A DNA stretch of 64,000 nucleotides from assembly GCA_036172245.1 (NCBI GenBank), contig JAYWIR010000096.1, positions 62,001 through 126,000 of the forward strand, in the 5' to 3' direction. Below the pieces are notes generated by a model, which was not told the origin of the DNA, ran no database searches, and saw only the letters and a program-made list of their open reading frames with translations. Each line of letters begins with the position of its first letter. Within the stretch, counting starts at the first letter, position 1. Of the stretch, positions 1-64,000 are shown piece by piece. Source of the DNA: Raillietiella orientalis (Eukaryota). Made by a program: the position numbers and the translations under genes.

Positions 1-447
1 AAGGATCATAGGACTTACCAACAAGTCCGCTATGGAGATCCTCGCCGGGATGTTTCATGGGTATGGTAATGTTCCCTGTTACAATTTCATGGTGAGGACG
101 ACCATAGCCCTCTTCATCACCGCCATACTTGTGCGGTGGTGGAAAATGAGGAAATCCAGGAGAGCCGCACCACCGATGGAGATCCTACAAGGGCCCTTGA
201 AGAGGGAAAACGGCATCAGGAACTGCGGGAATATCCACGCCTGGACGTATCGATTCATCCTGAAGAGGATCCAGGACGACGCCCGGGACCATCCAGCTGG
301 AATTCCCACCTGAAAAGCAGAACCCTAGTGCAACCAAAGGACCTACAAGTGCAAAATGTTTGTATTGAGTGAATGAGAGTGCGAATGTAAATATTGTATT
401 TTTATAGAAAAATAAACTTACCCCACCCCTTGTGGGACTTGGGGAAA
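1..447 (+). mobile_element. 3' end of a family-Y L1/Tx1-type LINE (ORF2 C-terminus to 313, 3' UTR, AATAAA, terminal hairpin)
   Basis: Near-identical to the reverse complement of 8850-9300; ends AATAAActtaccccaccccttgtgggacttggggaaa. Confidence 0.9.
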
Positions 448-1933
448 CTTAGCGATCGCGAGAGGCGCTGCCTCTTCCAGATCGGAGGGTTCGCGCGTTG
501 CCTTTGCGACCGTTGGGGGCACTGCTGTAGCGGTTGTGCTCGCCCTAGCAGTTTCTTCCTTGGCCGCAGTAGGCGCTGCGTCCGCGCGCGAGGACTGCGG
601 GTTTGCCGGCTGTTTCTTCGCGGCACTCGGTGCCTGGGGCACCTTGGCCGCGGTAGCTTCAGACGGCTCGGTGTTCTTTGCCCGCGGGAGCGTTTTTCCC
701 GTATCGGGCGAACGACCGCATTCCGCGCCGCTCGTCGAGGCCTTGGTACGAGGCTTCGCGGTCGTGATGCCGACAGTAGGAGGCTTTTTGACCTTCGGTA
801 CAATGTCTCCTGCATTCAACAATTGGCTGCGAGGTCTCGTAGAAAGGTCGCATACTTCGCAAGCTTTCTTCGAATCGATAGCCGGAGGCTTTGCCGCGAC
901 AACTTTTTTCGTTTTTCACCCCTATTTTGTCGGTGCAAGAAACAGTTTTCTGCACGTGAGTGGTCGCGGTTTTCGCAACGCTTTTCGAAGCTTTGATGTT
1001 TCTTTCTCTTGATTCGCGGCGATTATTCCGCGATGCGGAACGCGATTCGTTCCTGTGCTCTTCGTTTTTTAAAAGGAGCTCCGGGCACGTTCCTTTTCTG
1101 TGCCGGTGCACGTGGCAGTAACGGCAAGCGCCCAAGGGACACTTCGTAATACGGTGACCCTCCTGCCCGTATTCCGCGCGCACGCACGTTTGCCCGGCAA
1201 ACCACAGGTAGACGGTCATTCCATCCACCTGCAGTCGCGTGGGCATTGCACGGCAATCCGTCATCGTCACTCGCACTTGCGCGAGCCCGCTTTGGTGGTC
1301 TTCGATCCCTTCAGCAGGGTTTGGCAGCCTCGAAAGCGCGTGAACGGTAGGTAATTTTTCAAGGGCCTCCACGACCACGCGGCCCGAAATGCCCTTACAC
1401 ACTCCACTGAGCCGGACAACAAACGACTGGTCCGTTGTGACAGTGAGTATTGCCTGCCCACGAATAAGCGGTTGCGTGTGCAGCAAACGCTGCGTGAGAA
1501 GAGCGTCCTTACTGGACACCTCCCAGTAGCCGCACCCACTCATGGGCATGATGGACTCTAGTTGGCCTTTTTGAACTCCAATCCGTTGAGTTCCTGGCCA
1601 AACTCGCGCCCAACCCGCTCAGGCATAAGGACACTAACCTCATACCTGAGTGCAGGAGTGTAGCCATTTGCTACATACGCCTGAAGCTCAGGGATGTCGG
1701 GCGAAGGTCCCATTGTAGCCGGGAGGGCAGCGACCTAAGCGAATGTCCTCGCCGACGGCGAGTACAGAGGCTCCTTGCTTGCACCCAAAGCAGCCATCTC
1801 AGGAGCAGGTGGCGTTCCCTTCTTGCGGCTCATGTTCTTCTTTGCTCCCATTGCAGCACAGAAGCACAGCGGAACAAAAACACACAAGAGGCAATCTACC
1901 TCGGAGCGACGCAAAAACACGTCCGTACGCGAC
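448..1933 (-). mobile_element. 5' part of a family-T LINE: 5' UTR plus disrupted ORF1 (ATG about 1851), cut by the Y element at 448
   Basis: GGACGTG about 10 nt from the 5' end; ORF1 pieces (PELQAYVANGYTPALRY, YLWFAGQT, degenerate CCHC knuckles) are homologous to ORF1 at 7604; stops and frameshifts present. Confidence 0.8.
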
Positions 1934-3862
1934 CGTCGCTGATGCGTGTGACGGGAGGTGTTCCCGCTTATTTTCGCTCAGCAAAGGAGCGGCTCCTGCC
2001 GGAAGGCGGTGCTTTGCGCCACCTCAGCAACTGGCGTCCGATCACCCTAATAAATTGGGACGTCAAGTTGTTCTCCAAGCTATGGGTTACGCACCTGGGG
2101 AGAATCGCTAAGACCTTGGTACGTCCGGAGCAGACGTATGCTGTTCCGGGGCGGTCCATGGACGCGAATGTATTCTTCGCGCAAACATGGTCCGAGTTGC
2201 AGCAGAATGTGGCGCAACAGAGCCAGGCAGCCGAAATCGCCGCTGCCAAAGGTAAGCGGAGGTGTTCACGGCACGATGGAACGCTGAAAGCCTTAGCGGT
2301 CGCCGTCTATCTCTGAAAAGCGTTCGAAAGCGTAAACCAGGACCTCCTTCTTGAGCTTCTGAGACGCCTAGGCCTCCCGAAGAACCTCGTCGTCTACTTG
2401 CGCTCCTGCTGGTGCCACGCGTTATGCTGTAGCTCTTTCAGCGGGCGTCACGTGTACGGCATTCACATACGGCGGGGTATTAGGCAGAAAGACAGTTTAA
2501 GCCCCCTGCTCTTCAGCATCTTCTTTGAGATGGTGCTGAGGGCGTACAGGATGACGCTGGACAACCTGCCGAGCTCCTGCCCGGGAACACCAACCGTGGT
2601 TGCCTATGCTGACGACCTTCTCCTGCTGTTGCCCATGTCCACCCCGCAGTCCAGGCTCGAGGACTTCTTCGGTCTCATTCGTCGGGGAGCGTGCCTGAGC
2701 TTAACAGGACGAAATCAACCGTTGTACCGGTTGGCTCTACGTGGGAGGGGCAGTCCGACTGGATCCGCCAGAGGATACGCACGGGCAAGTGCTTAAAGCA
2801 CCTCGGCGTTGCCTTGGGCGCCTTCTGTTCAGCAGAAGCGTGGACGGACTGCCTTCACAAGGCCGAGACTGCTCTGGGCCCGTTCCATGGCAGCAGGTTT
2901 CTCCTGTCGGAACGGGCCTTCTTGTGGAACATTTTCGTTGCCCCCCTCCTCCGTCCCCTCTTTTTTGTTTGTCCTTCTCCCTACTCGGCTAAGCGCCGGG
3001 CGCAACGCCTGTTGCGGAACGCCCTGTGGGGACCGGCGAGGTCCAGGATACGCCTGAAGGACTTGGCGGCTCCTCGGCGGGATGCACGATTGGGCATCCT
3101 GACGCTGCAGCGGATCGGACTGCTTGTGCAGTTCCGCGTGCTGGCACTTTGTGCGCAGCTATGGACTACTCCCTGGTGTGCTCCAGCGCGTCTGCAGCTG
3201 CGTCGCTACACGGGCGGCGACGGACTACGTTCGTTGCATCTGCGCACGGAGCGCGCCCAGAGAGGATTCGGCTTCCCTTTAAAGCAGCTCGCCACGCTTC
3301 TGGGAAAGCATGAGTGGATCTCCTGCCGGCCGACGAAATTCAACGCCTGGAGGCAGGAAGCCTTATCGTCCTGGGCAGCGCAATTGTGTTGTGTCCCGTT
3401 TGGAACTCCGTTGCGTGAAACTTTCCCCATACTGTCCAGTGGGGAAGGTGCTGGAAGACCAGGACCAGTGGACACGCCTAGCCGCTACGCCACTCGCCGA
3501 AGCACTGTGTGCCCTGATGGTGCGAGATGACAGTGACCTGCAGGCGAGGTGGGAGATCACTTGCGAAATCGCAGGGGAAACTTGACTGCTGGGCGGATGG
3601 AGGACTTGCGAAGTGGCAGACGCTGCCACACCTCGCATTCGTGGCAAAAGACTTCTTTGGTGGAATGAGCTTTTAAGGGTGCCCACCGATAAAATTTTGA
3701 TTCCTTCTGAGTGTTTGGACGCGACTCTCTTCCCATTTCGGTGGAAGCAGGAAGCTTTCCTGCTGGCGCATTGAGGTTTGCACTGCAGCCAGCGGGCGAA
3801 CCTGGTTTCCGGGGAGTTGCGTATTCGAACTGTGCCAAATGCGGAGCGGTGGAATCGCTTCC
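1934..3862 (+). pseudogene. Degenerate LINE ORF2 fragment (RT through start of the C-terminal zinc finger)
   Basis: NWRPITLIN, PEQTYAVPGRSM, RRGIRQKDSLSPLLF, AYADD, CAKCGAVESLP; several stops and frameshifts. Confidence 0.88.
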
Positions 3863-6800
3863 GGGGCATTTTTTGTTTAATAAACATTTACAAAGACGTG
3901 CAGTGGCTGGACCATTGCTCCTGCCACTCACGAAGAAACACAGAGCCTGCCTGGTCACCGGTTCGCAGACCGGCACGGTCCACCACGGCAGCAGCAGGAA
4001 GGGAGAAAAAAACAAAAAACAAATTAAAAACAAAAGAAAAAACTGGGAGGGTACCGGAACGGATCAAAGTTGCTGGTGGGGTCGTTGCATCCTTTACAGA
4101 ATGCCTGCAAGCTCCTGCTGCATTCTTGGATCCAGGTGGGGCCATCGCGACGCTCTGTCCAGAAACTAAGAGGCTGGCTGGATGGCACCCTGGTCGCGTT
4201 GTCCTCCCGTAGCCTTGCTCCAGGCGGTGAGGATCCCGCGTAGGTAGCACATAGCTGCTAACGAGGCCGCAGGCCGAAGGGCGTCGGCAACGAAGAGGGC
4301 TTTCAGAGCGTCACTGGGGTTGCCGCAGGGGATTCCGATGGCAGCAGCAAAGCAAAATTAAAGAAGCCGAAGGGCAACACAATCCACTAGCAGGTGGGGG
4401 AGGGACTCCCGTTCCCCACACAGGACGCAATTGGGGTCCACCGTTCCCCAGGTCCAGTATTGTTGGCGAGCGTTGCAGGGTAGTCCCCAGTGCTGCAACA
4501 GGAGAGCCGACTCCCGCCATTTTAAGGGGAGGGTGGAGGTGTTGATTAGTACCGCGAGCCACTTCAAACGTTCGATGGGAGAGTCGAGCAGCGCGCCCCA
4601 GCGAAGAAGTCAATAGAAAGGAGTACTCGGGGTGGCAGCGTCAGTCAGCTGACCCGTCTTCCACTCTCCTATCTTCTCCTTTCCGGAGATTTTTACTGTA
4701 ATCATCCACTTTGCCGCAACATCGCTGTCCAGATCTTTCATCAGGGAGGGCAGCGCAGCAGAGATGGGGGTCTTCCTGCCCACGCTCTCTTCTTTGGATC
4801 CTCCAGGATCTAGCGGAGCGGGCAACTTCTGTAACCCCAAAACAGGAACCTTCGTTCCTGCTGGGAGCGTTCCATGCCGAACTGTTCTGACGTTCGAACG
4901 GTTTCCTACAACCAGGCACTACCGTTCAAAGGGCGACAGGTGACCAATCCTGGGTATTTCCGGTACAGCGCAGCAACCCTCCGTAGCTCCAGTCCGCATC
5001 GGTTGACGCGTCGACGGAGTGCAAGAAACGACGTCAGTCCCGTCTTGCCAATGGGTTGCTTGAGAAGGAGACGTGCAGTGACGCACCAACAGGTGCACCA
5101 CAGCTCTGGAACAACTGCCGACATTTTAAACTGGAGCTGGAGCTCCAGCCGTTCCAGCGTCAGAAGGTCCAGACCACCGTCCCGACGTGGAGCGCACAAG
5201 TCCTTTAAGCGGAAACGGGCCCTCCCGTTGCCAAACAGGGCGATATGGATGGGGTACTTTCTCCGCTTTTTAGTTCTCTCTGTGGGGAAACAAACAGAAA
5301 GCAGGGGGCGAAATGGAGGAGCCGCGAACGTGTTTTAAACCGCGACCCGTTCAGGCAGGAAAGACCTGCCGCCTCGGAACGGGCCGATTGCCGTCTGTAC
5401 TTTTTGGAGGCAGCAGAACCACGCATCCGCAGGGGAGTAGTCCCCCAACGGCACACCAAAGTACTTGAAGTACCTCACCGTGAGGATCCCCAAACGGACC
5501 CAGTCCTGCTGCTTTGCTTTCGCCGCACCATCTGGTATCACGGGCGACTTCGCCCTGTTCACCGTAAATCCGGCTCCCCGATGCAGCAGGTCGAAGAACT
5601 TCTCGACCGCCGAAGCCGGGGTGGACATAGGGAGCAGCAGCAGAAGGTCATCCACGTACGCTGAAACGACCGGAGTACCAGCACAGTCGTGCGGTAGGTG
5701 CGCCAGAGTTCCCCTGTACGTTCTCAGTACCAACTCAAAGTAGGAACTGAAGAGCAAGGGGCTCAGGCTGTCTCTCTGCTGGATCCCACGCTGAACCGGA
5801 ACGCCGTGCACAGTCTGCCCGCTGAAAGTAACTTTGATAAGCGCGTCGCGCCAGTAGGTTCTCAGATAGGTTACTAATAAGGCCAAGAATCCCAAGCGTT
5901 TCATAAGCTTCATAAGGAGATTCTGGTCGACGCAAACGAATGCTGTCCTCAAGTCGACTGCGACCGCAAAGGCTCTCTCCCCCACCCGATCATCCTACCC
6001 CTTACCGGCGCACGCATCGTAATTTCGGCTGCGCACCAAGCTCCTTTCTCGTTGGAGCTCTAGCCAGGTGAAAGCGTAGAATAGGTTCGCCATGCTTCGC
6101 CCGCGACCAGCATATGCCTGTTCTGGGCTGATGAAGATGTTGGCAGCCCTTCCTAACCTCTCTGCTCACATCTTGGCTAGCAACCTGGCGTCCGCATTCA
6201 CTATTGTGATGTGACGCCAGTAGTTCATGCTCTTCAGGTCTCCTTTCTTAGCGAGGAGCCGCACTTTTGCCGAACGAAACAAGGCGGAAAAGTCACCTGT
6301 GTCGTGTATTAGCAAGGTCAGTTGCTCTACCAGGGGGTTGAGCTCAGCCGCGAAGGTTTGGTGAAACTCCGCGGGCATGCCGTCCTCTTCTGGAGCTTTG
6401 CGCTTCTAGAGCTTTCCGATGGCCGAGAGGATCTCGTCCATCGTGAAAGGCTCGTCGAGGGTCTTTCTCTCCCACTCCCGGATCGCCGGAGCGCCTTTCG
6501 GAATAAGGTGCTGTGAGACGTTCCTCTCCGGAGGTGCCCTGGCATACAGGGAGGAGTAATATCTCCGCAGCAGTCCACGGATTTAAGCGGGTGCCGAGTG
6601 CTCCTGGCCCTGATCGTCCAAGAAGCCGGCTGATCCGGACTTCCAGGCTTGCCTCTCGGGTCCCGCTTTGTATTCCGTCAGCTTGCGTATGTCCGGGGTC
6701 CTGGCGTAACGAGGGGCCTGCAGTTAGACTCGCTCGTTACGGACACCGGTCCCAAATCCCGTAGGTATGCGGTGCAGAGGGAACTGGTTGCAGAACAGCT

Positions 6801-7488
6801 AGACCGCCCGCTTGAAGCGGTCCCAATCCTTGAGGATTTGCACCCTGAAGCTCCGTATGAGCGTGCGGAGAAGTTCTGCCGCGTCCAAGAGCTTCATCCA
6901 GTTCCCTGGGAGACGCCACGCTGACGAGGGGAAGCTCCTATCGCGCGGATGGATCTCGAGGACTAGAGGGCAATGGTCGGACAGCTCGCACGGTAACCAG
7001 CCGCGCCTGCCCACGCGAAGGCACAGGTGATCGTCAAGAAACACGTGGTCAATGCTGTCTCCCATTTCCGGTGCACTGACCAACAAATTGCGGGTGTGCA
7101 CCGCCATGCACACCTTGTTGACCAGGTCACGCTCGGGATTCTGCCCATGTGGTTTCAGGCAAACGTTGAAACTGCCTGCAACCAGATGGGCATTCCGTAC
7201 GCCTGCTTCGGTCAGCTAGTCGCGCCGTAGGGCAATTCAAAACTCTTTTCTCACCCTACTATTCATCAGGTCCGCGCCACTCGCTGCGTACACGTTCCTG
7301 ACGAACAGATCGATGGAGTCGGACCACCTGAGAGTCAGCTGGTCGACCCGACCATGATCGTCGAACAGCACGTCCAAAGCCACGGCCTCGACGGTTGAAG
7401 AAAGCAGGCAGGCGACACCGCAACTTTTAGGATTCCCACACCTATACCATAGGCGCCCTCCGGAGATCCGTTCGATCTCCTGCGCTCG
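3863..7488 (-). mobile_element. Degenerate LINE 'D': ORF2 pseudogene from within the EN to the 3' UTR; 5' part removed at the AQEI codons where X1 begins
   Basis: AQEIERISGGRLW, NVYA, IDHVFLD, SDH, RGIQQRDSLSPLLF, YVDD, CVLCGERESLPHLLVDC; U-rich 3' UTR about 4005-4045. Confidence 0.88.
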
Positions 7489-7496
7489 TACAGTGC

Positions 7497-7506
7497 AGAC
7501 GTGTTT
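7497..7506 (+). promoter_or_regulatory. Conserved 5' RGACGTG motif (candidate internal promoter element), representative copy
   Basis: Lies about 10 nt from the 5' end of X, T, W and Z elements whose UTRs are otherwise dissimilar. Confidence 0.5.
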
Positions 7507-7603
7507 CCGCGTCTTTCCGCGCCAACGATCGGGCAACTTTGTGCCTGCGTTTTTGCTCGCACTTGTGTGTTCCTGTGCAATCTGCCAAGTAGCATAGTGC
7601 AAC

Positions 7604-8849
7604 ATGGCCAGTACACAGGCTAGTGTGGAGGAGCAAGCCACTGGATGCACTTCAGCTGCACTTGAAGTGGCCGCATCCTCCGTAATGGTTTCCTCGCCCC
7701 CGGTGAGGAGTTACGCCGTCGTTACCTCCCAAAGACCAGGACCCTGCGATGCGGAGTTCCAGGCATATGTGTCATCAGGATACATGCCTGCACTCCGTTA
7801 TAAGGTCAGTGGGCCACTTAACGGGAGAATCGGTCGTGAGCTCAATGATGAGCTCGTCCGGATAGGCGTTCGCGAGGAGGAACTCCTTGCCATAATGCCT
7901 GCTGGCAGGATGGAATATACGAAGATTCGGTGCAAGAACGCAGCACTTGTGCAGCGCCTTCTCCGTACGCCGTTGACCATCAATGGCATGGAAGTCCTAC
8001 CTACCGCGATGGACGACTCTTTTGTCGTTCAATTGTGCGACATCGAACCGGAAATCTCCGACCGCGATGTCGTAAGTGTGCTGGCGAAGTTCGCCAACGT
8101 GCACGCTCTGTGGAGGAGGCCAAATCCTCTAAAGGATTTCCCCTCTGTCCACATTGGACAAGCCTCCGCGAGGATCACCGTCGCGAACAGGAGTGTTGTG
8201 CCTGAGCAGCTGCAGGTGAACGGCACGGTCGTTCACCTGTGGTTCATAGGCCAGACTCGCGCGTGCGAGCAGTGCGGCAAGGATGGGTACCGAATTAAAG
8301 AGTGCCCCTCTCCAAGATGCCGCTATTGCAAAGATTCCGGGCACGAAATCAAGAAGTGCCCGGTACTTGCAAGAAAAAGAGCCGCAGCGGAAATTCGTCG
8401 GGTTCAAGAGACCACTGCACGAAAAGCCGCAGCGGCAAATAAAAATCGTCGTCCGCAAAAACTCGAAAAAAACCACGAGCGATCCGCGGATAAAAAGAAA
8501 GCATCCCCGCCCGCAACGCCCCGAAAGGGGAAAGTCACGGCGGGGAAGCCAATTAAAAGGGGGCGCGAGGGTTTGACGCGTGCCGTGCCTTCCCTCTCTG
8601 CCGAACTCGCAGGCACCTTTCCGAACCTGGAACCAGGAAATCTCCGTAACACCCTGGAGGGAAAGGTAGGAAAACAGGAAGATCGCAACAGTGCGAAGAC
8701 TTCTTGCCCCGTTCCGTTGTCCCTTTCGAGTTCCGGACAGCCCCACTGCAGCGCAGGCCCCACTGCAAAGGCTACGAAAGCCGTAAAAGGCAGCGTCGCA
8801 ACGAGCAAAAGCACGCTGCATGCAGTCGCCCCATCGCCGACTCGGCAGG
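7604..8849 (+). CDS. X1 ORF1, N-terminal part (nucleic-acid-binding protein, two zinc knuckles), interrupted by Y
   Basis: SYAVV motif, CEQCGKDGYRIKEC and CRYCKDSGHEIKKC; rejoins 14472-15130 in frame (634 aa) once Y and one TSD copy are removed. Confidence 0.88.
8834..8849 (+). repeat. Target-site duplication of Y, left copy (right copy 14456-14471)
   Basis: tcgccgactcggcagg vs tcaccgactcggcagg (15/16); the empty site is present in X3 at about 26181-26196. Confidence 0.92.
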
Positions 8850-8983
8850 TTTCCCCAAGTCCCACAAGGGGTGGGGTAAGTTTATTTTTCTATAAAAATA
8901 CAAAATTTACATTCGCACTCTCATTCACTCAATACAATTATTTTGCACTTGGGGGTCCTTGGGTTGCACTAGAGTTCTGCTTT

Positions 8984-11900: not shown

Positions 11901-12485
11901 GGTGCTGTGCAGGACGTGATCGATTGGCTTGTGGCTTGCTGTTCGCCAGACCAATCCAAACTCGTCGGATAGCCGTCGATACGCCGTCCTTCCTCTGGCG
12001 TCTTCCGAATGAATGATCTCATCCAAGATGTTGAGATCGCCAGCAACTATCACGACGTCCTTAGGGGCGACCTTTTGCCGGAGTGTTGCATGCAGCGCCT
12101 CCGCACAACGATGTTTTAGCCTGTGCGGCCCGTACACGTTCACCAGGATAAAGTGAACAGTCGCGGACCAGGCCAGTCGCACGCCGATGATTCGTCCGGG
12201 TTGGGGACAGAACACTTCCAGAATAGTGGGGGCTAAGTTGTTCTTTATTAGCACCGCCACACCCTTCGTGTTCCGTTCTCCTTCGTTGACGAACATCTGC
12301 CCGTTGAATCGCCGTTCTATTCGCTGGCTTATCTCGAGACCCATCCTGTGGGTCTCCTGCAGGCACACGATGTCTTGTTGTGCGATGGTCCGCACAATCC
12401 TTCTTCTTTTTCCCCGGTCGACCACACCGTTTACGTTCCAGGAGGCGATGTTTATCCTCCTGGCGGTCGATAGGGAAGAGGCCAT
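8984..12485 (-). pseudogene. Y ORF2 (APE endonuclease-RT-CCHC) with one frameshift near 11545
   Basis: SWNVNG, LQETH, NVYGP, GDLN, IDH, SDH in 11544-12485; QWRPISILN, DMEKAFD, GVRQGDSLSPMLF, YADD, KYL, CAACGDDDTRLHVLTC in 8984-11530; the two ORFs lie in different frames. Confidence 0.9.
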
Positions 12486-12498
12486 AAAAGGGGAAGAC

Positions 12499-14286: not shown

Positions 14287-14471
14287 CCTGGCAGCTGGTC
14301 TTGCTGCACGGGACCACTGCAGGTCCTTTGCCGCGATCTCCTCGCCGCTTCTTTTTTTTTGTTTCTTCTGGAAAACTTCCCCTTTCCGGGCACACACGAG
14401 CACAATGAACTGATTAAGTTGTCAAGCGCACAATACTTCGAGCCGCGGAGCAAGTTCACCGACTCGGCAGG

Positions 14472-15130
14472 AGCGGAGCGATCTGCCGACTGTCAAGAAG
14501 TTGACTCCGTTGCCGCCTTTTAAAGGCGTAGCGAAATCAACGCCATCAGAGAACGCAGCGAAAATCCCGGAGGTTTCCGCAACTACTGTCGCGGAAGCCT
14601 CCGAAAATCGCGAAGGCAAATGGAAGGTTGTGGAGAGGAGGAAAGAAAAATCTCCAAAGAAAGCTCCGCAACCTCCATCCCTGAGCTCTTCCAAAGGAAA
14701 AAGCAGTCGCGCGAATACGAAAACACGCGCGGCTTGTGACTCTTCGAAGGAAAAAGCCAACGCCTTCAACGCAAGCAAGTCCGCTTCTGTGACCGCCGAG
14801 AAGACCATTCCGGTGCAATCGGACGGATGCAAGCGCACGTCGATCGTGCGAGCATCAGACTTCCCAAAGGAGTCCGATAACGCAGCTGAACGACGCGTAA
14901 CTCGCGCGGGAGCGAGCGCCCGCAGGGCTGAAGCCCTGAGGCGTGACACACTCGCCGCGGAACGGCGAGTGCTCACCCCGGAACCCACAGGTTCTGCACC
15001 CGGGGAGGAGGACCCGATTACGTGCAGCACAGTTGAGGCCGGTGCCAACCGCGCCCTCCAGCCCGTCGTGCTGCTTACTGCCCGCTCGCCGGGTGAGGCG
15101 AGCACCACGGCCTCGCTTTCCCAGCCGTGA
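14472..15130 (+). CDS. X1 ORF1, C-terminal part
   Basis: Continues the frame of 7604 (PSPTRQ|ERSDLPTVKK); its stop overlaps the ORF2 start (TGATG). Confidence 0.85.
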
Positions 15131-18699: not shown

Positions 18700-19025
18700 G
18701 AACGGCGTAATGTGGTTACCCCTGCGACCTCTCGCCCACCCATACCCCGTCCCCGTTCGCTCGGTAAAATTTCCGGTGCCCATGCTTTTATCCCCGTGTC
18801 TTCCAGAGCGATCCCAAAGACCCTTATCCCGTCCTTCTTATTCATTGTTTTTATTTTATTTTGGTTTCTTTGTGTTTCCCGCCCGCCCACACCGTTCAAA
18901 AAACTGTTACTCTGGCCTGCGTGCCAGCAATATTCTCTTCATTCTTGTTCAGTCGTCGGTTAGAGTTTGGTTCCCAACTGGTTTATTTTGTATAATTGCT
19001 TTTTTTTTTTGGTTATGTTATATGG

Positions 19026-19055
19026 AATAAACGCCCCGGCGTGACCGGGTGAGAA
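19026..19055 (+). terminator. AATAAA signal plus terminal GC hairpin, representative copy
   Basis: AATAAAcgcCCCGGcgtgaCCGGGtgagaa; an equivalent occurs at every intact 3' end. Confidence 0.7.
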
Positions 19056-19069
19056 ATCTCTTGCGCTCG

Positions 19070-24938: not shown

Positions 24939-24952
24939 ATCTCTTGCGCTCG

Positions 24953-28134: not shown

Positions 28135-28149
28135 GGGGGGTCGGCTGTG

Positions 28150-30484: not shown

Positions 30485-30485
30485 A

Positions 30486-50685: not shown

Positions 50686-50696
50686 GGGATTCGGCA

Positions 50697-53600: not shown

Positions 53601-56470
53601 GTTGCGAGCACCCTCGCCGAATCCGGGGGGCAGGCGATCCAGGGGGAACTGCTCACAGAACTCGCGGACCGATTCCTTAAAAAGGTCCCAGTCCTGGAGA
53701 TTCCGGAGCGTGACGCCTCCCAGGTATTCGCGAAGGTGTTCCTTCGCACCTGAGAGTCGCGTCCATTCCTTCGCTAGCTGCCAATCCCTGGATGGCGGTC
53801 CTTTGTCGCAAGGCCGTATCTCGAAAATTAGCCGGGAATGGTCCGACAACGTCGACACAACCCTCCCCCGTTTGCCGACGCGTGAACACAGGTCAGCGTC
53901 CAGGAAGACGTGGTCGATGCTGCGGACCATTCCTTTCTCACCCGCGAACAAGTTGCGCGCACGCATGGCGGCGCACATTTCGTTCATCGCTTTCACTTGT
54001 GTTTCCGGCTCACCTGTTAGCAGGCGGAGATTCAAATCTCGCGCTATCAGGTGAGCCTTTCGCACATTGGTAACCGCCAGCCAGTCGCGCTTCAGGGTTT
54101 CCAGCAGCCTGGTGCGGTCGCGGTAACCCTGTTTGCCGCTGGGGCCATACACGTTTGTGAGGATTAGGTCGATCGAGTCGGACCAGCTGGGAATCAGCTG
54201 ACCGATCCGACCGTCGTCATCAAACCTCACGCCCTTTACGGCAGCGTCAATGGCCGGCTTCACGAAGAACGCGACCCCGCAGGTGTTGCGGAGGCCGCAT
54301 CGCCAATACAGCCGACCCCCCGCGATCGTCTCGATTTCCTGGGCGTCCGCCGCGGTGATCACGTGGATCTCCTGCAGCAGCGCCAGGTCGAGCTCACGCA
54401 GGTTGTCGGCTGTATGTCGCCTGTTGCCGTCGTCACGCAGCCCGTTGACGTTCCAACAGGCCGCGCGAATCCGACTGCGACTGGCGAGCCCAGGTGTTAG
54501 TCCAGGGAAAACGGCGATGCGGCGTCCGCCACCTGCTGGGACGGGACGCTAGGTGGAGGGGTAGGAGGGACAGGTACTGAAGGCACCTTTTCTTCCTCCT
54601 CCAACGGTGCCGGCGCGTCGGCCGGATCACCCGCACGTGGAGTCGCGCCTACCTGTTCGCCTTCCTCCATTTGTTCGGGCTGCTCAGGTTTCGCGACTGC
54701 AGGGAGGACTTCTCCCTCCTGCTCTCCCTCCTCCATGGGGGTGGCCGACTCGACGGCTTCCGGGCGTGGCTATTCCCCCTCCGGGATTCCCACGCTGCCG
54801 CTTCCTTCCGGTTTCTCCTCCTCGCTGGTGGAGGGGAGGCGCCTCCTGGGTTTCTGGGACTTGCGTGCCGACTTCCTGGGGGGTGCCTCCGAGGAGGAGG
54901 ATCCGCTTCCGGCCTTCAGGTCGCACTCACCTGCGGGGGCCTTCTCCGTCGGAGCCGACCTGCGTACGCCCTTGCGCGACGGGGTTTCGCGCTCGGCGAA
55001 CGTTGCTGCGAGCTCCCCCGCCGCTTTCTGGAAGGCCGCCTCTTCGCCAGCGGCGACCGTTGCCGCGGGCTGCTCCGCGACCTTATCGAGCGCGGCGTCA
55101 TCGTTGACGGCAAACGTTGCCGCGGGCTCCTCCGCGACTTTATCGAGCGCGGCGTCCTGGCTGTCGGCGCGCGAGTCTCGCGTCTCACCCTCTACACGTA
55201 GATTGGGCTCGTCCACGCGAGTATTCATCGCGTCCGCATCAGCTGTTCCGCGAACATTGCCGCGGGCGGACTCGGCAGGAACGGCTAAGCGTTCCAGTGC
55301 CACCGAGCATTCGCGGAGTTTTTTTTTTGAAAGCGGCGCGGCTTTTTTCTTGTTGCCAGCAGTTTTCTTCTCCGAATTTTCTTCTATCATCACTTTCTTT
55401 TTTTTCTCTTTTCTGGCCTGAACCAGCTGCCAACCCTCCTCCATTCCCGCGTCCACGGGAGCTATTTCCTCCGACGTCTGTACGGGAGGAAGGGAGGCTG
55501 GCAGTTGGGAACGGCCATTTTCGCGAGCTGGTCTTTCTACCAGCTTTCCACGTTTTCCCTGCGCCTTTTTGGCGGCAGGGGGCACCGGGGTGGGGCGCTT
55601 TTGGCACACGCGCCGAACGTGACCCTTTTCGCCGCATAGGTGGCACACAATGTTCGGGCACCTTTTTCGTAGATGCCCTACTGCATTGCAGTAGCCACAA
55701 AATTGGCGTTTTCCCACGTACCAGAGGTCCACCGCTTCTTGGCAGACCTCCAGCTTATGGGGAAGCGCACCACCCTCTTTTACCGTGATACGCGCCGCAG
55801 CTTGACCTCCGAAAAGGCTATTGTAGCCTTGGAAAATCGTGGACTTCGGCCACAACGCGTGCACTTCTCCGTGCTTTTCAAGCTGTTCTCGAAACGCTGA
55901 CCTCGTCATGCGACTGGAGATCCCAGTGAGATGGACCACCACCGAGCGGTCCATCGTTATAGGCAAGATCTTCCGACCATCAACGATCAGCGGTTCGGTG
56001 ATCAGGTGTCGGGCCAAGGTGATATCCTTGCATACCACCTCGACCCGCTGCCCGCCGCTGAAGACGCAGAGGCCGTCGAGATCTTTTTCAAAAATATTGG
56101 CGTCCTGCAGCGCCTTCGTAAAGGCGCGTGCAGTTCGCCCATCGAAAAGGTAGCCTACCTTGTAGACTAGCGAGGGTTCATACCCCGCTTTCTTGGAGGC
56201 TTCCATCTCGGCCATGGCTTCCACGCTAGGCGCGGCCACCATGGCGCTCTAGGATCTCGGCGTCGCCGGGGACGATTCCGGGGCGGATGCCCCTGATCCA
56301 GTAGGCTGTGTGGACGAACAAGCCTCCATCACGCCTACTTCCATCGCAGTGTCCTCTGGCAACGCTGCCATCCGACACCGACGATGTGCACGCACAAATC
56401 ACTTAAGAAGAAAAAACACTCGCTTTGCCACGCAGGCGGAGCGCAGGAAAAGCACGTCCGCTCTCCACAG
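50697..56470 (-). mobile_element. Full-length family-Z LINE ('R'), mildly degenerate, head-to-tail with Q
   Basis: GGACGTG at 56453-56459; ORF1 56371-54497 (CGYCNAVGHLRKRC, CHLCGEKGHVRRVC); ORF2 from 54497 with a stop at 52350 and a frameshift near 51770. Confidence 0.92.
54995..55165 (-). repeat. Three-fold 19-aa (57-nt) coding repeat in R ORF1
   Basis: DAALDKVAEEPAATFA / DAALDKVAEQPAATVA / EAAFQKAAGELAATFA; single copy in L and Q. Confidence 0.8.
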
Positions 56471-59462
56471 CGGGGATTCGGCAAAGGGCTGAGAAACGAA
56501 CGGGCATACCATCACGCCCGTCTTTATTATAGGACTCTCGGCGTTCGACGCCTAGCAAAGTATAAAGGTGGGGTTGAGCGACAGACCTCGCAATCCGTGT
56601 CGGCCAGCTTCCTGGACGCCCGAAGCCAAGAATGCTTGCTCCGTCAAAAATAAACCGCATCCTGCGGGAATATTACTTCTCCTTCTACGCGCGTAGAACA
56701 ACAGAGCGCGCCGTGGCGCAGCGCTTGCTGCCTGAAAGCGCCCTTGCGCAACAGGAGGGGCAGACACATCAAATCGAGGAGCCTTTCTCGATGGCGGAGA
56801 TCATCTCCGCCATCGGAAAGCTCAGAAAGAGGAAAGCCCCAGGGAAAGACGCTCTGCCCGCGGAGTTCTACCAAGGCTTCGTGGCGGTGCTGGCCAGCCA
56901 AGTGCATTGGCTTTGCATGCTGATCCGAGAACAAGGGGACGTCTCCAAAACGTTCCATTGAGCTAGTGTACGTCGCCTGCCGAAAGGAGGAGAAAATCGC
57001 AACGTAGGCAACTCGCCTCTCATCACAGTAGAGAATGCGGATGCGAAGTTGCTTGCCAAGCTTCGGGCTGAGCGACTGGGACAAGTGGCGGAATCCGTGG
57101 TGAGTCCGGAGCAGACATACGCTGTTCCCGGACGAAGCATGGAGGCCAACATGTTCCTTGCCAGTACATGGTGGCAGTTGCAACAAACCGAAAACCAGAA
57201 AGGTCAAGGGAATCCTGGATTCTCCTCTGAACAGTCAGAGGACGCCCTTCATGGAAGAGCCGCGCCCGGTGCCCCAGCGGTTGCAGTCGATCTGCGTAAA
57301 GGGTTCGATTGCGTCGATCAGGAACTCCTTCTGGAGTTCGTGGAACGGTTGGGATTCCCGGCTGTCTTTCGGGCTTACCTGCGCTCCTGTTGGCGCTTCG
57401 ATGTAATAAACATCTCTTTTAGCGGCCGTCACGTATACGGCATGCCTGTTCGGCGTGGCATAATCCAGAATGACAGTCTGAGCCCCTTGCTCATAAGCAT
57501 CTACTTCGAGCTGGTGCTGATGGCATACAAAGAGACTCTGGCAACCCTGCCAAGCTCGTGTCTCGGCACCCTTGCCCTTTCGGCTTACGCCGACGACCTT
57601 CTTCTCCCTCATTCCGGGTCCATGCCGACGTCGGCGCTTCAAGATTTCTTTGAGTTGCTACGCGGCGGGGCGGGCCTCTAGGTGAACGGGTAGAAATCTT
57701 CCATCGCTCCAACATGATTACTACTTTTAAACAAGATGGTGTGGGCCGGACGGCCGGACTGGATCCGCTTGGGGATCCCCACGGGCAGGTGCTTCAAGTA
57801 CCTTGGCGTTCCGTTTGGGGACTTCTGCGTTGCAGAAGGCTGGTCCGACCATCTCAAAAAGGTGGAGTTGGCGATTGGCCCATTCCAGAACGGCAAGTTT
57901 CACTTGCAGGAGCGGGACGCGGTGTGGAACGCGTTCGTGGCCCCCCTTCTTTGTTCCTTACTTTTGGTTTGCCACGCCCCTCCCATCATACAGAGACGGA
58001 CAAAACCCCTCTTGAGGACTGTTCTTTGGGGCACAGCGAGGTGGACAGTCCGATTGAAAGACTTGTGCGCTCCAGCGCGGGATGGTGACTTAGGCCTCCT
58101 TACGTTGGAGCGCATCAACTACAGACAACACTTCGGAAGTTAGCGCTTTCGGCTAGCTTATAAATGACGCCATGGTGCGAACCGGCACGGCTTGTCGCCA
58201 GAAGAGCGACTGGCTGCGAAGGATTGTCCTCGATCCTCGTGACCTACCAGCGTAGCCTCTCCAACTGTGGCCCCCATTTGCGCAAGATGGTAGCACTGAT
58301 GAGATAGAATACCTGGATTTCCTGCCTTCCCGCGCACTGCACTGCCTGGCTTCAGGTGTCAGACTCCTCGTGGGCTAAGATGGAGGGCACGAGCAAGGCG
58401 GAAAAGTACTGCCTACGACGAGGAACGTACGCTCGAAAGCCGCTGCAGGAGTTTATCAACACGCCTCGGAAGTTTCTGTGGGCTTCCTTTAGCTCCGTTG
58501 CCGCCGTTTTGTCCTTCCTGAAGAACACTAGGAGCAGCAACGAGCGGGCATCTTGGGATGTGTTCTGCCTCATCCGAGGCAGGAAAAAACCTTTAAAGGC
58601 GAGGACAACTTGGGAGCTAACGGACGCTGCCACTACGAGCGGCTCGCCTCACAGACTTGCGCGCTAGGGGGAGCTGCTCGCAATACCTCCGGAGGAGGTG
58701 AAGTGGCCCCTAACTTGTGGGGTTTGCGGCACACTTCCGTTGGAGTGGCAGGAGACGGCGTTGCTATTTCTGCACTGAAGACTGTTAAGAAGAGCACGCC
58801 TTTCTCACTGGACACTGGGGAATGTGGATGCCCGCTGTGTCAAGGGCGGAGAAAGAGAAACCTTCCCGCATCTCACTCTCAAGTGTGTCGCCCTGGATAG
58901 AATCTAGAGTCGAATCGCCCCAATCGTCCATCTTCCAGTAGGCGACCCTAAGGAAATTAACCGGCGCCTCTTTCTGCGTGACGGCCTGCGCCCTGCCGCG
59001 TCTCCAGCAGTCCGCTGCTACGTGCGCGGCATTGTGGAAAGGTGGCACGCCACAAGAAAAGGCCCAAGATGCAGGGACGCCATCCACTGAACGACGATCT
59101 CTTTAGAGAGGGCGACAAGGTGGCGTCTTCCTCCAACAGTAAAACCAGAAATTGACTGCACCGTAAACTGGATGCTGGGGACCAACCCAGGCGCACAGTG
59201 TTTTCCTACCTGCCCCCCTCCCACTCCCCCATATAACTGTTTTCCTCCCCGTTATTTTTTTTGTAGTTTCTTCTTGTTCTAGTTTTCCCTTCCCATGCGC
59301 CTCGGGAATGGACCTAACCGGTCTATTCACCGGCAACCGACACGTCAACCAAGGTAAGAAAACCCAGTGTTCCCCCACAGAAAACATTTTTTAAAGACTT
59401 AATTATCTAAATTTTTTTAAAAATTGGAATAATAAATGCCCCGCTATATCCGGGTGACAAAC
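56471..59462 (+). mobile_element. Degenerate family-V LINE ('S'): ORF2 from GFG onward plus 3' UTR
   Basis: GFGKGLRNERAY, PEQTYAVPGRSM, YADD, KYLG; ends aataaatgccccgctatatccgggtgacaaac. Confidence 0.88.
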
Positions 59463-59494
59463 AATAAAAGCCTTAGGCGTACCCGGGTGTAAAC
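59463..59494 (+). mobile_element. Isolated 32-bp U-type 3' terminus
   Basis: aataaaagccttaggcgtacccgggtgtaaac resembles 44051-44082 and has the same downstream flank. Confidence 0.75.
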
Positions 59495-60039
59495 CTTTAA
59501 GGCTGGCAAGAAGGCCGTAAGGCGTCCGGCCTCCCCTCAGGAGTCCCCCACTTCCGACCCCAAGGTGGAGGCCGGAAGCGCAGCCTCCGTTTCCACGGCA
59601 CCACGCAAGAAGGCTGGACGTAATTCCACAAAGCCAAGGAAGCTCGTCTCCCTCATCGAAGAGTCAGATATGGCTTCCGCAAGCGAGGATGCCATGAGCG
59701 TGGGAAACTCTCGGGACCCGTCGCCCGAGGGACTCCCACACACGGACACGGAGGGGATGGAGGGGGTGGAATCCGTACAGGTGCCTCAGGTTCCTAAGAA
59801 GGCCGAAACCCCCATGGACATCCCGCCCGCCTCGCAAAAGGAGGGCTCCCCCACACCTTATTCTTCCCAGCAGTAATGCCGGGAATCTCCTCCCGCCGTC
59901 GTCTGCGCATCGCCGTTTGGAACGCCAACGCCATGACAGACGCCGGCAAACGACGAGACATGGCCGCCTTTCTGGAGTCCTACGACCTTGCGCTGCTGCA
60001 GGAGATCCATGTAATTTGTGCAGAACAAGCGCAAGAGAT
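59495..60039 (+). mobile_element. LINE fragment: ORF1 C-terminus, TAATG junction (59874) and EN start, cut at AQEI
   Basis: MPGISSRRRLRIAVWNAN...LLQEIHVICAEQAQEI. Confidence 0.85.
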
Positions 60040-63000
60040 TTCTCACCCGGTCATGCCGGGGCGTTTATTCCATAGAACATAACCAAAAAAAGCCATTATA
60101 CAAAACAAACCATTTGGGAACCAAACTCGCAACCGACGACTGAACAAGAATGAAGAGAATATTGATGGCACGCAGGCCAGAGTAACAGTTTTGCGAATGG
60201 TGAGGGCAGGGCTAGGAACACAAAGTAACCAAAATACAATAAAAACAATGAATAAGGAGGACGGGATAAGGCTCTTTGGGATCGCTCTGGAATACACGGG
60301 GATAGAAGCATGGGCACCGGAAATTTTACCGAGCGAACAGAGACAGGGTATGGGTGGGAGAGAGGTCGCAGGGGTCACCGGATTACGCCGTTCTGAAAGG
60401 TGTGTAAACCGGCGCTCTATGCCGGTGATGTCCCCATTCACCTTGTCACGAAGATGAGACCATCTTGAAACCTTCTCCATAAATTGAGCTGCAAGCAGGT
60501 GGGCCTCTTTTTGCTGCGCTGACAACTGCAGCGCGTAGCGGGCCTTCACGATGGCGCGAACGCAACACATGGTTGCGACAATCGCGCCAACCGAAAGTCC
60601 ATTTCTGCTGAAGAAGCGCCGCAGCACATCAATGGCAGTGCCTCCTTGTGGCATGATGGCCGAAGTGAGCCTTCGCCACAGTTCCCGGAGGTCACCGCAG
60701 TCCAGCAAAAGGTGCGGAAAAGACTCGATCTCTCCGCACCTTAAACAGCTTGGCAAAGCAGCTCCCCCGGAAACGATATTTCGCTGCCTATTACAGTGTA
60801 ATGCACAATGTAAAAAGAGCAGCACATCTTGTTTCCACTTAAGGGGGAACACGGAGCTGTCCAAACAAACGGGGGGAACCACTATCTTTCCGGGGGGCAC
60901 ACTTAAATGTTCGGTCCACAAAGCAGGCCCTTCGACCGATTCCGAAGTGTGGCGGCTTGCACCAGCTCCTTTGTCGTCCAGCTGCCGAGGAGCTTACTGA
61001 CTCCCGCTATTTTGCAGGAGAACTCCCATTCCGCCTGTAGGCAACCGTCGTTGCTTGCCCTGAGGGCAGACAGCTCGGCGACAAGTGGTGTGGCGGCCAG
61101 ACGATCCGACAACTCCTTGTCCTGCATGACTTCGTCCATTTGATGACTGAGGAGAAGTCGTAGGCGTCGAAGATCTTCGGATCGCGTTCCTTCGGAAGCT
61201 ACCCACGATAAAAAAGATTCCTGTCGCCATGCAGTATTGTTCATTAAGGTGGCAGGAGATCCAGCTTTGGGCTTCCAGCAGTGAGGACAGCTGCCTCAGC
61301 GGGTAGCCAAACCCTATTCCGGTGTGCCGAAAGTGGGGTAGCAACGAAAGCAGTCCCTCGCTTCCCGTGCAGCGCCTCATTATGAGGCATGCGGGTAAGC
61401 ACCACGGCGTAAACCACAGCTTGGAACAGAGCCGCAGCATGCGAAACTGCACCTGCAGTTCGATGCTGTTTAAGTCGAGGATGCCCAAGCCTGCATCCTG
61501 ACGCGGCGCCACCAAGTCTTTAAGTCTAACACGGGATCTTGCAGCGCCCCACAACGCTTAGCGATGAAGGCGCTGCGCCCAGACTTTGACTTCTTGGGGG
61601 GATGGACAAACAAACAACGGGGGGCGGAGGAGGGGGACAACGAAGGTGTTTTAGATGCAAGCCCGTTCCAGGAAGACGAACTCGCCTCCTGAAAACGGGC
61701 CAAGTGCACGCTCTGCCTTCCGAAGGCAGTCCGACCACGCTTCTGAGATGCAGAAGTCGCTTAACGGCACGCCAAGGTACCTAAGGTACCTGCCCGTGGG
61801 GATCCCCAGATCGATCCAGTCGGACTGCGCCTCCCACGTCACATTCACCGAAACAACCATTCACTTACTACTGTTAACGCTTACCCCCGCACCGCGACGA
61901 ATCAACTCAAAGAAATCTTCAAGCGATGTCGCCGGGGTAAACATGGGCAACAGAAGTAGGAGGTCGTCGGCATAGGCTGCCACGAACGGCGTACCTGGAC
62001 AGGAGCTCGGGAGGTAAGATAGCAACTGCCTGTAAGCCTCCAGCACCAATTCAAAATAGATGCTGAAGAGCAACGGGCTTAAGCTATCACCCAGCCTAAA
62101 TCCTTGAAGTAACGGCACGCCATACACGCGACAGCCACTGAAAACAATGGATGTAATCGCGTTGCGCCAGCAGGAGCGTAAGTACGCCTAAAGGGATACC
62201 GTAAGACCCAGACGTTCCAAAAGCTCAAGAAGAAGCTTTTGGTTCACGCTATCGAAAGCTTTGTGCAGATCGACTGCAACCGCCAAGGCTCCCGGTGTCT
62301 CCCTTTGCGTCCCGCGCCTCCGTCGGTGAGAGATCGAAGGCGTCGCTTCCGCACGACGATCCACCGTCACACGATGCTGCAATTGCAGCCATGTGCGGAT
62401 GAACAAGAGATTCGCGTCCATGGACCGCCCAGGAACAGCGTACGTCTGCTCCGGACTTACCAAGGATTCCGCGATCCTACCCATCCGCGCCACCCAAAGT
62501 TTCGAGAACAACTTGACGTCCGAATCCACTAATGTGATCGGACGCCAGTTGTGCAATTGGCGCAAATCACCGCCTTTCGGCAGTAGACGCACCGCCGCTG
62601 AGCGAAACGAGGCGGGGATATCGCCCCAGTCTCGCATCAGCGACGAGAGTTGAAGCACCAGGGGGATGAGTTCCGCCGGAAAACACTGAAAGAATTCTGC
62701 GGGGAGCGTATCTTCGCCTGGCGCTTTTCGTCTCTTGAGCCCCGAGATGGCCGAGGAAATTTCCTCTGCCGTGAAGGGCTCACCAAGACGCGCGCGTTCC
62801 TCCTCGTCTACAACAGGTGCATCAATCGGCACAAGAAGCCGGGAGAGGCTGCTTTCCGTCAGTGCCTCTGCATACAGACAAGAGTAATAGCACGTGACTC
62901 TCCGTCGCACGTCGGCTGGAGACGAGCATTCCCGGTTCTGGTCGTCAAGTGGAACTGTCGCCCTTGACTGCCAGACCTGGCGCTTGGACTTGGACTTGTA

Positions 63001-64000
63001 CTCCAATAATCGACCAACGTCCGCGCGCCTGCAGAAAATCTCTGCTGTTCGCTACGCTCTTTCCGAAGTCACGCGGTAGCTGGTGCGAGGGGAACCGGCA
63101 GCAGAACTCGCGGACCGATCTTTTTAGATCGTCCCAGTCCTCGAGCTCACTTGAGGCAAAGCCGAGGAGGTACTGGCTAAGATACTCAGCCGCCTCCGGG
63201 TGGCTTAGCCAGTCTGCCGTCATCCTCCAAAAACAGTTTGGAGGCCCCTTGCCTGGCGGGAGCAACTCGAACTCGAGCCTGTTGTGGTCTGAAAGCACGG
63301 ACAGCACGGGACCTCACCGACCCACTCGAGAGAGCAAGTGTTCGTCAAGGTACATTTGGTCCGGCGTTGCTGCCATAACAGGTAATCGAGAGAACAAGTT
63401 ACACGCGTGCACGGACTCGCACATCTCTTCCGCTAGCAACTTTTTCCTTCTGTGGGATCTATTCTTGGAAAGCAGCAGAACGTTAAAGTCTCCCGCAATG
63501 AGATGGGCCACAGTAGGGTAAAAAAGAGTGAGCCTCTGGCTTTGAAAGGTACCGTAGAACTCAATTCTTTCGGCCCATCGTCCAGCACCGCTCGGCGCGT
63601 ACACGTTGGTTACGACAAGGTCGATTGAGTCGGACCACTTAAGTACAAGCTGTCCCACTTGGCCTTCCGTGTCGATACGGACGCTGCGCACCGCTTTCAC
63701 CAAAGTTCCTCGCACGAGGAAAGCAACGCCGCACGTACGTGCAGCGCCACACCTATAAAGTAGCGTTCCGCCCGCGCGCCGTTCGATTTCGGCAGCCTGC
63801 TCTCCGGAGATCCTGTGAATCTCCTGCAGGAGCGTCAAGTCGAAGGCGTGCAGAGTGTCAGCCACTAGTCGCCTCTTCTCCTCGTGTTGGAGCCTGTTGA
63901 CGTTCCAAGACGTTACGGCAACACGACGAGAAGACGCGATTGCCCTCATCACGGCTAGGAAAGCGAGGCCTTGGTGCTCGCCTCACCCGGCGAGCTGGCA
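60040..64000 (-). mobile_element. Family-X copy X4 (degenerate ORF2 from 63949, 3' UTR); continues beyond the window
   Basis: Reverse complement of the X1/X2 ORF2 and 3' UTR; AATAAA at 60064-60069. Confidence 0.92.

Follow-up and report, generated by a model that had tools for sequence, protein, structure and literature searches.

The 64-kb stretch of Raillietiella orientalis contig JAYWIR010000096.1 analyzed here (hereafter the window) consists of long interspersed nuclear elements (LINEs) lying within one another, and the positions at which they meet recur, family by family, at particular codons of other LINEs. We consider it likely that several of these families integrate by sequence-specific target-primed reverse transcription within the coding regions of sister families. 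The window itself is probably part of a cluster made almost wholly from one local radiation of L1-like retrotransposons that lack long terminal repeats (non-LTR elements). All counts, junctions, and comparisons given below refer to this single window.

By sequence, the elements are L1-like (L1-superfamily) LINEs. Almost the entire window, in which the GC content is 52–62% throughout, is L1-like sequence with an apurinic/apyrimidinic endonuclease (APE), a reverse transcriptase (RT), and an open reading frame 1 (ORF1) with candidate CCHC knuckles. Among the 12 longest stop-to-stop ORFs, RVT_1 was detected in six, Exo_endo_phos (APE-type) in three, and zf-CCHC in two, and three were unmatched. 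In ORF2 of element X1 (15097–18699, 1200 amino acids), Exo_endo_phos spans amino acids 25–233 and RVT_1 amino acids 474–744, and element Z2 has the same layout. The zf-CCHC match scored 21.3 bits in ORF1 of element Y (cut-off 20.8) and 20.6 bits, slightly below the cut-off, in ORF1 of Z2; CxxC..H..C motifs can be seen by eye in ORF1 of X, T, Z, and Y. An ORF1 with an RNA-binding module and CCHC knuckles is found in plant L1 and Tx1 elements. When compared with solved structures, X1 ORF2 matched human LINE-1 ORF2p best (1e-44), with R2 at 6.5e-15, and a protein database search with the same ORF2 returned 42 matches with a top identity of only 31% and no close relative. A tblastn search with the X ORF2 gave 36 high-scoring segment pairs that tile the window on both strands, and ORF1-like pieces occupy most of the gaps between the ORF2 matches. 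Comparison of the window with itself by BLAST yielded 104 non-trivial pairs with identities from 64% to 97%. In a tree of the RT core, in which the outgroup was 12 unnamed or loosely named database proteins taken in BLAST order from the 31 of 42 matches that aligned over more than 250 residues, the 12 RT rows from the window formed one clade (support 100/98). Within this clade Y branched first, followed by the V-type element H3, the X/F1 group, and the Z/B/C/F16/F2 group, and at least eight diverged families are present in the window. X1, X2, Z1, Z2, and Y retain both ends; X3, C, T, and W retain a complete 5′ end; and complete ends of either kind can be aligned between copies as far as the junction.

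The X family occupies a site at the AQEI codons of the endonuclease. Three of its copies, X1, X2, and X3, follow one another head to tail on the plus strand, and the fourth, X4, is on the minus strand. The AQEI 12-mer GCGCARGAGATY is found at 7474–7485, 19055–19066, and 24938–24949 on the minus strand and at 60029–60040 on the plus strand, and X-family ends lie beside all four. Each of the six X ends that flank it does so antisense to the host. The 5′ end of X1 adjoins GCGCAGGAGATC (7474–7485), which represents the AQEI codons of the minus-strand LINE F2 (AQEI site to 3′ end, 3897–7473), the host of the X array, and F2 then continues in frame (ERISGGRL...). Near the other edge of the window, the 3′ end of X4 (60041–64000, minus strand, running past the window edge) adjoins GCGCAAGAGATT, completing LLQEIHVICAEQAQEI of the plus-strand host H4 (59494–60040), a LINE fragment bounded by the KAGKK codons of ORF1 and the AQEI codons of the endonuclease. 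These two host junctions thus differ in strand and in their 12-mer and are 52 kb from each other. Inside the array, exactly one 12-mer, in both cases GCGCAAGAGATT, separates X1 from X2 (19055–19066) and X2 (19067–24937) from X3 (24938–24949). X1 is itself in two parts, a 5′ part with the 5′ untranslated region (UTR) and ORF1 (7486–8848), broken by Y, and a 3′ part with the intact ORF2 and the 3′ hairpin end (14456–19054), whereas X3 (24950–27224) lacks Y and is broken at ORF2 amino acid 135 by a rearrangement. The degenerate 12-mer GCSCARGARATY is present six times in the window, compared with 0.31 expected from shuffles, and four of the six copies are occupied; the other two, in Z1 and Z2, are intact and unoccupied. 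At the target position, X's own codons (GCTGCCGAAATC) depart from the target in 5 of 12 bases, and Z1 and Z2 hold near-matches. An indel also distinguishes the X copies, in that ORF1 of X1 contains ∼120 nt (8041–8164) that are missing in X3 (25505–25511).

The Z-type elements (Z1, Z2, B, and the 5′ part of C) meet their hosts at the 9-mer GGWTTCGGC, which corresponds to the GFG codons that close the host endonuclease. Junctions of this kind lie at 30475, 33417 (minus strand), 45021, 50687, and 56474. All six Z-type ends at the 9-mer (both ends of Z1 and of Z2, the 3′ end of B, and the 5′ end of C) fall on the identical nucleotide, and all Z-type inserts are antisense. Host A (29091–30483, plus strand), which runs from an ORF1 tail to the endonuclease, is cut at GFG by B, a Z-related LINE (30484–33425, minus strand) that extends from its own GFG codons (33417–33425) to its 3′ end at 30484. 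B is both an insert in A and the host of C (33426–39124, plus strand), a Z-type/V-type chimera whose 5′ end adjoins the GFG codons of B. Further along, the A-family endonuclease fragment H5 (44396–45029, plus strand) is cut at GFG by the full-length Z1 (45030–50686, minus strand, 5657 bp). A single 9-mer, GGATTCGGC (50687–50695, plus strand), lies between Z1 and the full-length Z2 (50696–56473, minus strand, 5778 bp, with an intact ORF1 of 492 amino acids), which is hosted by the V-type LINE H3 (56474–59462, plus strand, GFG codons to 3′ end). GGWTTCGGC occurs 11 times in the window compared with 1.79 expected, and these copies comprise the five junctions, three intact homologous endonuclease sites (in C, Z1, and Z2), and three copies elsewhere that are unoccupied. 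Z, unlike X, carries its own target. We rejected 36154–36162 as a GFG junction, as it is an intact site with a frameshift nearby, and we also rejected the assignment of H5 and H3 as certainly one host, because their 9-mers are one base apart, which is not decisive.

The remaining families provide fewer junctions. The full-length Y (8849–14455, minus strand, 5607 bp) is very divergent, with 28% amino acid identity to X, and lies antisense in the ORF1 tail of X1, at a palindromic stretch. Y ends were located at 448|449 in T, at 8848|8849 and 14455|14456 in X1, and at 20355|20356 in X2. In X1, Y is bounded by a 15-bp target-site duplication (TSD; 8834–8848 and 14456–14470) with 14 of 15 bases identical, the flanks being tcgccgactcggcag and tcaccgactcggcag, and the uninterrupted site is retained in X3 at 26181–26195. 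X2 contains a Y 5′ remnant (19554–20355, minus strand), and a 3′ end fragment of the Y family that is cut by the window edge (1–448, plus strand; 95.1% identical to Y at 9296–8849) abuts the ORF1 tail of T. U-type 3′ ends are at ORF1 KAGKK codons in two of two cases, at 44087 and 59499, in the sense orientation. The first belongs to F16/U1 (40671–44081, plus strand), a Z-related LINE from ORF2 amino acid 128 to the 3′ end, hosted by the ORF1-tail fragment H5′ (44082–44205, plus strand, containing KAGKKAVRRPAS), and the second is a tail of ∼31–36 nt (59463–59493, plus strand) between the 3′ end of H3 and the KAGKK site of H4; the intact counterpart, KAQKK, is present in the ORF1 tail of A. Between the 5′ end of W (27225–28135, minus strand, a LINE 5′ part with ORF1) and the 3′ end of Q (28148–29090, minus strand, a LINE 3′ part with ORF2 amino acids ∼967–1197 and the 3′ hairpin motif) lies the GGRL 12-mer GGGGGTCGGCTG (28136–28147, plus strand), which is identical to the GGRL codons of Z2 itself. 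Three sites are represented by a single case. The 5′ end of T (449–1935, minus strand, a LINE 5′ part with the 5′ UTR and an ORF1 with a CCHC motif) abuts the SLMR codons, beginning at 1936, of F1 (1936–3896, plus strand), an X-related LINE that covers ORF2 from amino acid 453 to ∼1100 with 66% amino acid identity to X by tblastn. The V-type 3′ end of C at 39124 adjoins the ECSSAAK codons of F15 (39125–40670, minus strand), an X-related LINE with ORF2 amino acids 10–364 and upstream sequence, and the 3′ end of F2 probably adjoins the C-terminal zinc-knuckle codons of F1. Overall, site specificity is strongly supported for X and the Z-type elements and moderately so for Y, Q/W, and U; for the single cases there is no support.

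An earlier note on this DNA had proposed that each LINE family inserts at its own recurrent site in other LINEs, namely X at AQEI (four junctions), Z-type at GFG (five), Y at an ORF1 palindrome (three), U at KAGKK (two), and W at GGRL, T at SLMR, and V at ECSSAAK (one each). All 17 of these junctions, in all classes and counts, were located where that note had placed them. The broader proposal of recurrent, family-specific sites is borne out for X and the Z-type elements, for U, and for the GGRL site common to Q and W, but T and V provide one case each; the ECSSAAK junction of V is present, but a second V-type 3′ end lies elsewhere; and the three Y junctions exist, but the palindromes in T and X differ, and the X2 site is possibly a duplicate.

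The same arrangement could in principle have arisen if a few arbitrary nested insertions had been multiplied by segmental duplication, unequal crossing-over, or gene conversion, in which case the shared junctions would be copies of one event. This is unlikely for the window as a whole, and for the GFG class it is refuted by a mismatch between host and insert divergence. Up to the very GFG junction, hosts A and H5 show 95.3% identity (634 nt), whereas their inserts B and Z1, which enter at the same nucleotide, are only 75.4% identical over 2914 nt, with 65.5% identity in the 3′ UTR and different terminal bases; thus, neither a duplicated composite nor gene conversion of the insert accounts for the pair. 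In addition, B and H3, hosts from different families that were both hit at GFG, differ with a synonymous divergence (dS) of 1.49 and a ratio of nonsynonymous to synonymous divergence (dN/dS) of 0.29, the mark of divergence under purifying selection. ORF1 of the tandem Z1 and Z2 has a dS of 0.77 and a dN/dS of 0.29, indicating that the two diverged as active lineages and not as dead tandem duplicates. The dN/dS rows for Z2 against F16 (part a), and the part b rows built on the ORF at 50902–52407, fell in a wrong frame and were left out. The GFG hits were therefore independent, and amplification of one ancestral insertion, which the earlier note had named as an outcome that would overturn its proposal, is ruled out for this class. 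Its claim that duplication of one insertion cannot explain the recurrent sites holds less well for X, for which the evidence of independent hits is weaker. The opposite strands, 52-kb separation, and differing 12-mers of X4/H4 and X1/F2 argue against a copied event, but several observations weigh on the side of duplication and against our interpretation. X1 with Y and X2 with the Y remnant are uniformly similar across host and insert (94.3–96.7% in the X part and 95.1% in the Y part; dN/dS 0.59), and the best reading is that the pair arose by duplication at the DNA level and that X2 then lost 5.5 kb. This deletion, at 19553/19554, fuses X ORF1 to an internal position of Y (Y position 13634/5) and leaves the 5′ 800 nt of Y. 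The dN/dS values among X1, X2, and X4 (0.58–0.62) are not decisive between the readings. Further, the same 12-mer separates X1 from X2 and X2 from X3, with 2 of its 12 bases unlike those of the host copy in F2, a pattern without a certain explanation. DNA-level duplication, and not retrotransposition, may thus account for one Y site of the three and for one tandem X junction. Recombination and deletion have also left clear products: besides the X2 deletion, C is 92–97% identical to Z2 up to ∼37400 and then 85–90% identical to H3, switching near 37372–37450 in a conserved RT region, and with its 5′ end at the GFG codons of B and its 3′ end in F15 it fits homologous recombination or deletion between elements in the same orientation. 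Six breakpoints without element ends (27224/5, ∼29090, ∼37400, ∼40670, 44205, and 44395) likewise count against a history of insertion alone, and at least six breakpoints look like rearrangements (deletions or recombination) and not insertions.

A different possibility is that insertion is aimed at a region, for example at centromeric chromatin, and that the shared positions result from a weak nick preference combined with microhomology of the 3′ tail. Such an explanation would fit a window that is LINE from wall to wall, similar to the Zepp and ZeppL clusters (PMC8226300 and PMC3446292). It would also fit the vacancy of 6 of the 11 GGWTTCGGC copies, which means that the 9-mer alone is insufficient to define the target, and the dissimilarity of the two Y sites: the palindrome in T (GCGATCGC) is unlike that in X (GCCGACTCGGC), with about half of the bases in common, and both lie within a poorly alignable ORF1 tail. 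Site specificity is also weakened by the T, V, and F2 sites, which are single cases, and by the V-type 3′ ends, whose two positions disagree (the one at 59462 adjoins the 36-nt U-type tail and not ECSSAAK). However, a regional preference is hard to reconcile with the same nucleotide and orientation in six of six X ends and six of six Z-type ends and with spacers of exactly TSD length. If insertion were uniform along a host of ∼5.7 kb in two orientations, the chance of two further independent hits at one position would be ∼1e-8, and we regard regional targeting as quite improbable. Finally, the nesting might be an artefact of assembly in a collapsed repeat region. The region is indeed highly repetitive, and the short contigs of the sole public run cannot bridge elements, but diverged flanks surround the recurrent junctions, TSDs and complete ends exist, and the copies differ by 5–25%, which collapse would not produce; an artefact is therefore very hard to credit. 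Insertion of each family at its own site in the genes of its sisters, followed by rearrangement, is the reading that we develop below.

Features shared by the element ends are relevant to how such insertion would proceed. A poly(A) tail was found at none of the 14 definable 3′ ends, which carry a short GC hairpin motif and 3–6 bases instead. Such a tail is usual in mammalian and most plant L1 elements, although it is not universal. The common 3′ end is AATAAA-GCCCCGG..CCGGGTGA; in element sense, most 3′ ends read AATAAA-(C/T)GCCCCGG(G)-loop-CCGGGTG, followed by 3–6 bases that are specific to the family (AGA in X, ATAAC or ATAAT in Z, GCATT in B, ATACA in Q, and TAAA in U). V and Y have a separate 3′ motif ending in AAAC (..GACAAAC or ..GGCAAAC in V). 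The same 3′ end (at 19015–19054, 28148–28187, 30484–30523, 45030–45069, 50696–50735, and 59454–59493, among others) is common to families that are only ∼50% identical at the amino acid level in ORF2, and in the GC stem (CCCGG..CCGGG) B has T-for-C changes that would retain G-U pairs. Folding of 12 3′ ends gave a short stem in most of them, with z-scores from +0.95 to −1.94, not better than shuffles, and the hairpin is therefore treated here as a conserved sequence motif only. At the 5′ ends of X, Z, C, T, and W, a GGACGTGTTT box lies 10–16 nt from the first base, preceded by variable bases (stretches 1910–1935, 7486–7510, 19067–19090, 24950–24975, 28110–28135, 33426–33450, 50660–50686, and 56445–56473). 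An Rfam search gave no family match, so the conserved 5′ ends hold no known ribozyme. Since most inserts lie antisense in their hosts, they presumably need a promoter of their own, for which the box is a candidate; it may be an internal promoter or a start-site element.

Taken together, these features suggest the following course of insertion. Each family most likely has its own sequence-specific APE endonuclease, whose nick would fall on the strand ending in the target (host-sense GGWTTCGGC^, for instance), and reverse transcription would then be primed from the structured, A-less 3′ end of the element. A second-strand cut 9–15 nt away would generate the TSD. Under this scheme X would recognize GCGCARGAGATY^ and leave a 12-bp spacer, the Z-type elements would leave a 9-bp spacer, Q/W would recognize GGGGGTCGGCTG^ and leave a 12-bp spacer, and Y would leave its 15-bp TSD, all four inserting antisense; U-type elements would insert in the sense orientation, and for them a TSD or spacer was not seen. 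Because insertion would regenerate the target as a TSD, later hits on the flanking copy could build head-to-tail arrays in which the spacer is the TSD, and X1-X2-X3, Z1-Z2, and Q-W can be accounted for in this way. Every hit would sever an ORF of the host copy. Unequal crossing-over, deletion, and homologous recombination between copies in the same orientation would later have reshaped the pile, as in the X1/X2 duplication and chimera C. The attribution of specificity to the endonucleases, the positions of the nicks, and the order of events are proposals drawn from sequence comparison.

The pile contains ORFs that are still open, in keeping with recent activity, namely X1 ORF2 (1200 amino acids), Y ORF1 (640 amino acids), Z2 ORF1 (492 amino acids), and ∼900 codons of the beheaded B. 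In X1, ORF2 is intact despite the splitting of ORF1 by Y, and in B (30708–33590, minus strand) the ∼900 codons remain open despite the severing of the endonuclease by C; for these two elements the interruptions look recent. The Pro/Ala-rich N-terminal part of Y ORF1 contains tandem repeats of 27, 36, or 48 nt (13985–14196 and 19990–20104; AAMPRVVPAA-like). At 59423–59498, 3′-end motifs stand in tandem, with the V-type motif of H3 (..GACAAAC) followed by the 36-nt U-type tail. This arrangement could reflect a template switch or jump during reverse transcription or an extremely 5′-truncated U copy that was hit by V. Two short stretches could be assigned to no element, 190 nt at 44206–44395 and 60 nt at 3897–3956, the latter determining whether the 3′ end of F2 lies at 3897 or 3957. 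Metagenome scans gave no confirmed relatives when based on protein and no matches when based on the shared 3′-end motif. The public sequencing runs listed as containing the window sequence comprise one DNA run and no RNA run. Contigs from the DNA run on 43900–60100 are mostly 300–600 nt long, 315 of 388 are <95% alike, and the joints are ambiguous; no conclusion was drawn from them.

The proposed behavior has parallels in several known systems. APE LINEs that are specific for ribosomal DNA or telomeres (R1 and TRAS/SART) make a sequence-specific first-strand nick and show precise full-length junctions and defined TSDs. The window families resemble them in their precise junctions and TSDs and in arrays that would form by reinsertion at the regenerated site, with nicking here being a prediction from the junctions; they differ in that R1 and TRAS/SART belong to other LINE clades and target multicopy genes or repeats of the host, not genes of retrotransposons. 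Tandem dimers of site-specific LINEs have been ascribed to double insertion (PMC5932611). Closer to the present case are the Tx1 families of crocodilians, which target fixed positions of Mariner, LTR retrotransposon, and Harbinger sequences (Tx1-Mar and others; Kojima 2015, PMC4494074). Families there differ in position and orientation on one target (240 in the opposite and 830 in the same direction), and tandem copies of SINEU and Tx1 sandwich a TSD, which is explained by sequential insertion (PMC4494074). The insertion of Tx1L into Tx1D of Xenopus is cited both there and in PMC6719617, which reviews the targeting of transposable elements (TEs) by other TEs. The window shows comparable behavior, with sequence-specific insertion into repeats, spacers of 12, 9, and 12 nt, and a Y TSD of 15 bp. 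The two systems share membership of the L1 superfamily, an APE endonuclease, fixed positions in other TEs, and tandem copies that sandwich a TSD. The crocodilian targets are unrelated and mostly dead TEs, whereas those in the window are ORF1 and ORF2 codons of sister LINEs, and the window elements B and H3 are each both insert and host.

The clustered arrangement, in turn, recalls Zepp of Chlorella and Coccomyxa and ZeppL of Chlamydomonas, which PMC8226300, PMC3446292, and PMC9940879 describe as L1 LINEs that nest into existing copies to form LINE-only clusters, proposed to be centromeric. Here, too, L1-type LINEs insert into existing copies to give nested clusters with little other DNA. However, Zepp arrays, as portrayed in PMC8226300, consist of one family, or two at most, inserting into itself, mostly as 5′-truncated 3′ ends, whereas the window holds its at least eight diverged families with many full-length copies (X1, X2, Z1, Z2, and Y), and each well-sampled family has its own exact codon-level site. 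In the literature, a full-text search revealed no case of several sister LINE families each with a codon-level site in the ORFs of the others. The earlier note had stated that it knew of no described case, which stands for a network of LINEs inserted in one another's ORFs, but crocodilian Tx1 families with fixed TE targets had been published (PMC4494074). The TE-targeting crocodilian Tx1 families and Zepp nesting are the closest precedents, and mutual targeting among sister LINEs would be what is new here.

A more far-reaching interpretation, which we offer tentatively and think less probable than not, is that the LINE families form a closed intragenomic food web in which the coding sequence of the others is the only niche of each and all are both parasite and host. 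If so, endonuclease specificities and target codons would co-evolve, and the 5 of 12 mismatches between X and its target would look as if X had escaped self-targeting, whereas Z could hit its relatives. The RT relatives B (GFG, antisense) and F16 (KAGKK, sense) would then illustrate rapid retargeting of the APE endonuclease, and the self-renewing pile might act as a centromere-like safe haven.

Although its significance rests wholly on one 64-kb window, the arrangement bears on several questions. Site-specific LINEs are a natural case in which insertion at defined DNA sequences is programmable and templated by RNA, and a single RT clade that apparently has at least four or five distinct specificities of 9–15 bp would be a compact comparative set for retargeting of the APE endonuclease. 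For competition among TEs, it is relevant that the families inactivate one another and may be immune to themselves at the target codons. Overall, insertion of sister LINEs into one another's coding regions would help to explain how LINE-only clusters arise and are renewed, such as the Zepp and ZeppL arrays, for which a role as algal centromeres has been proposed.

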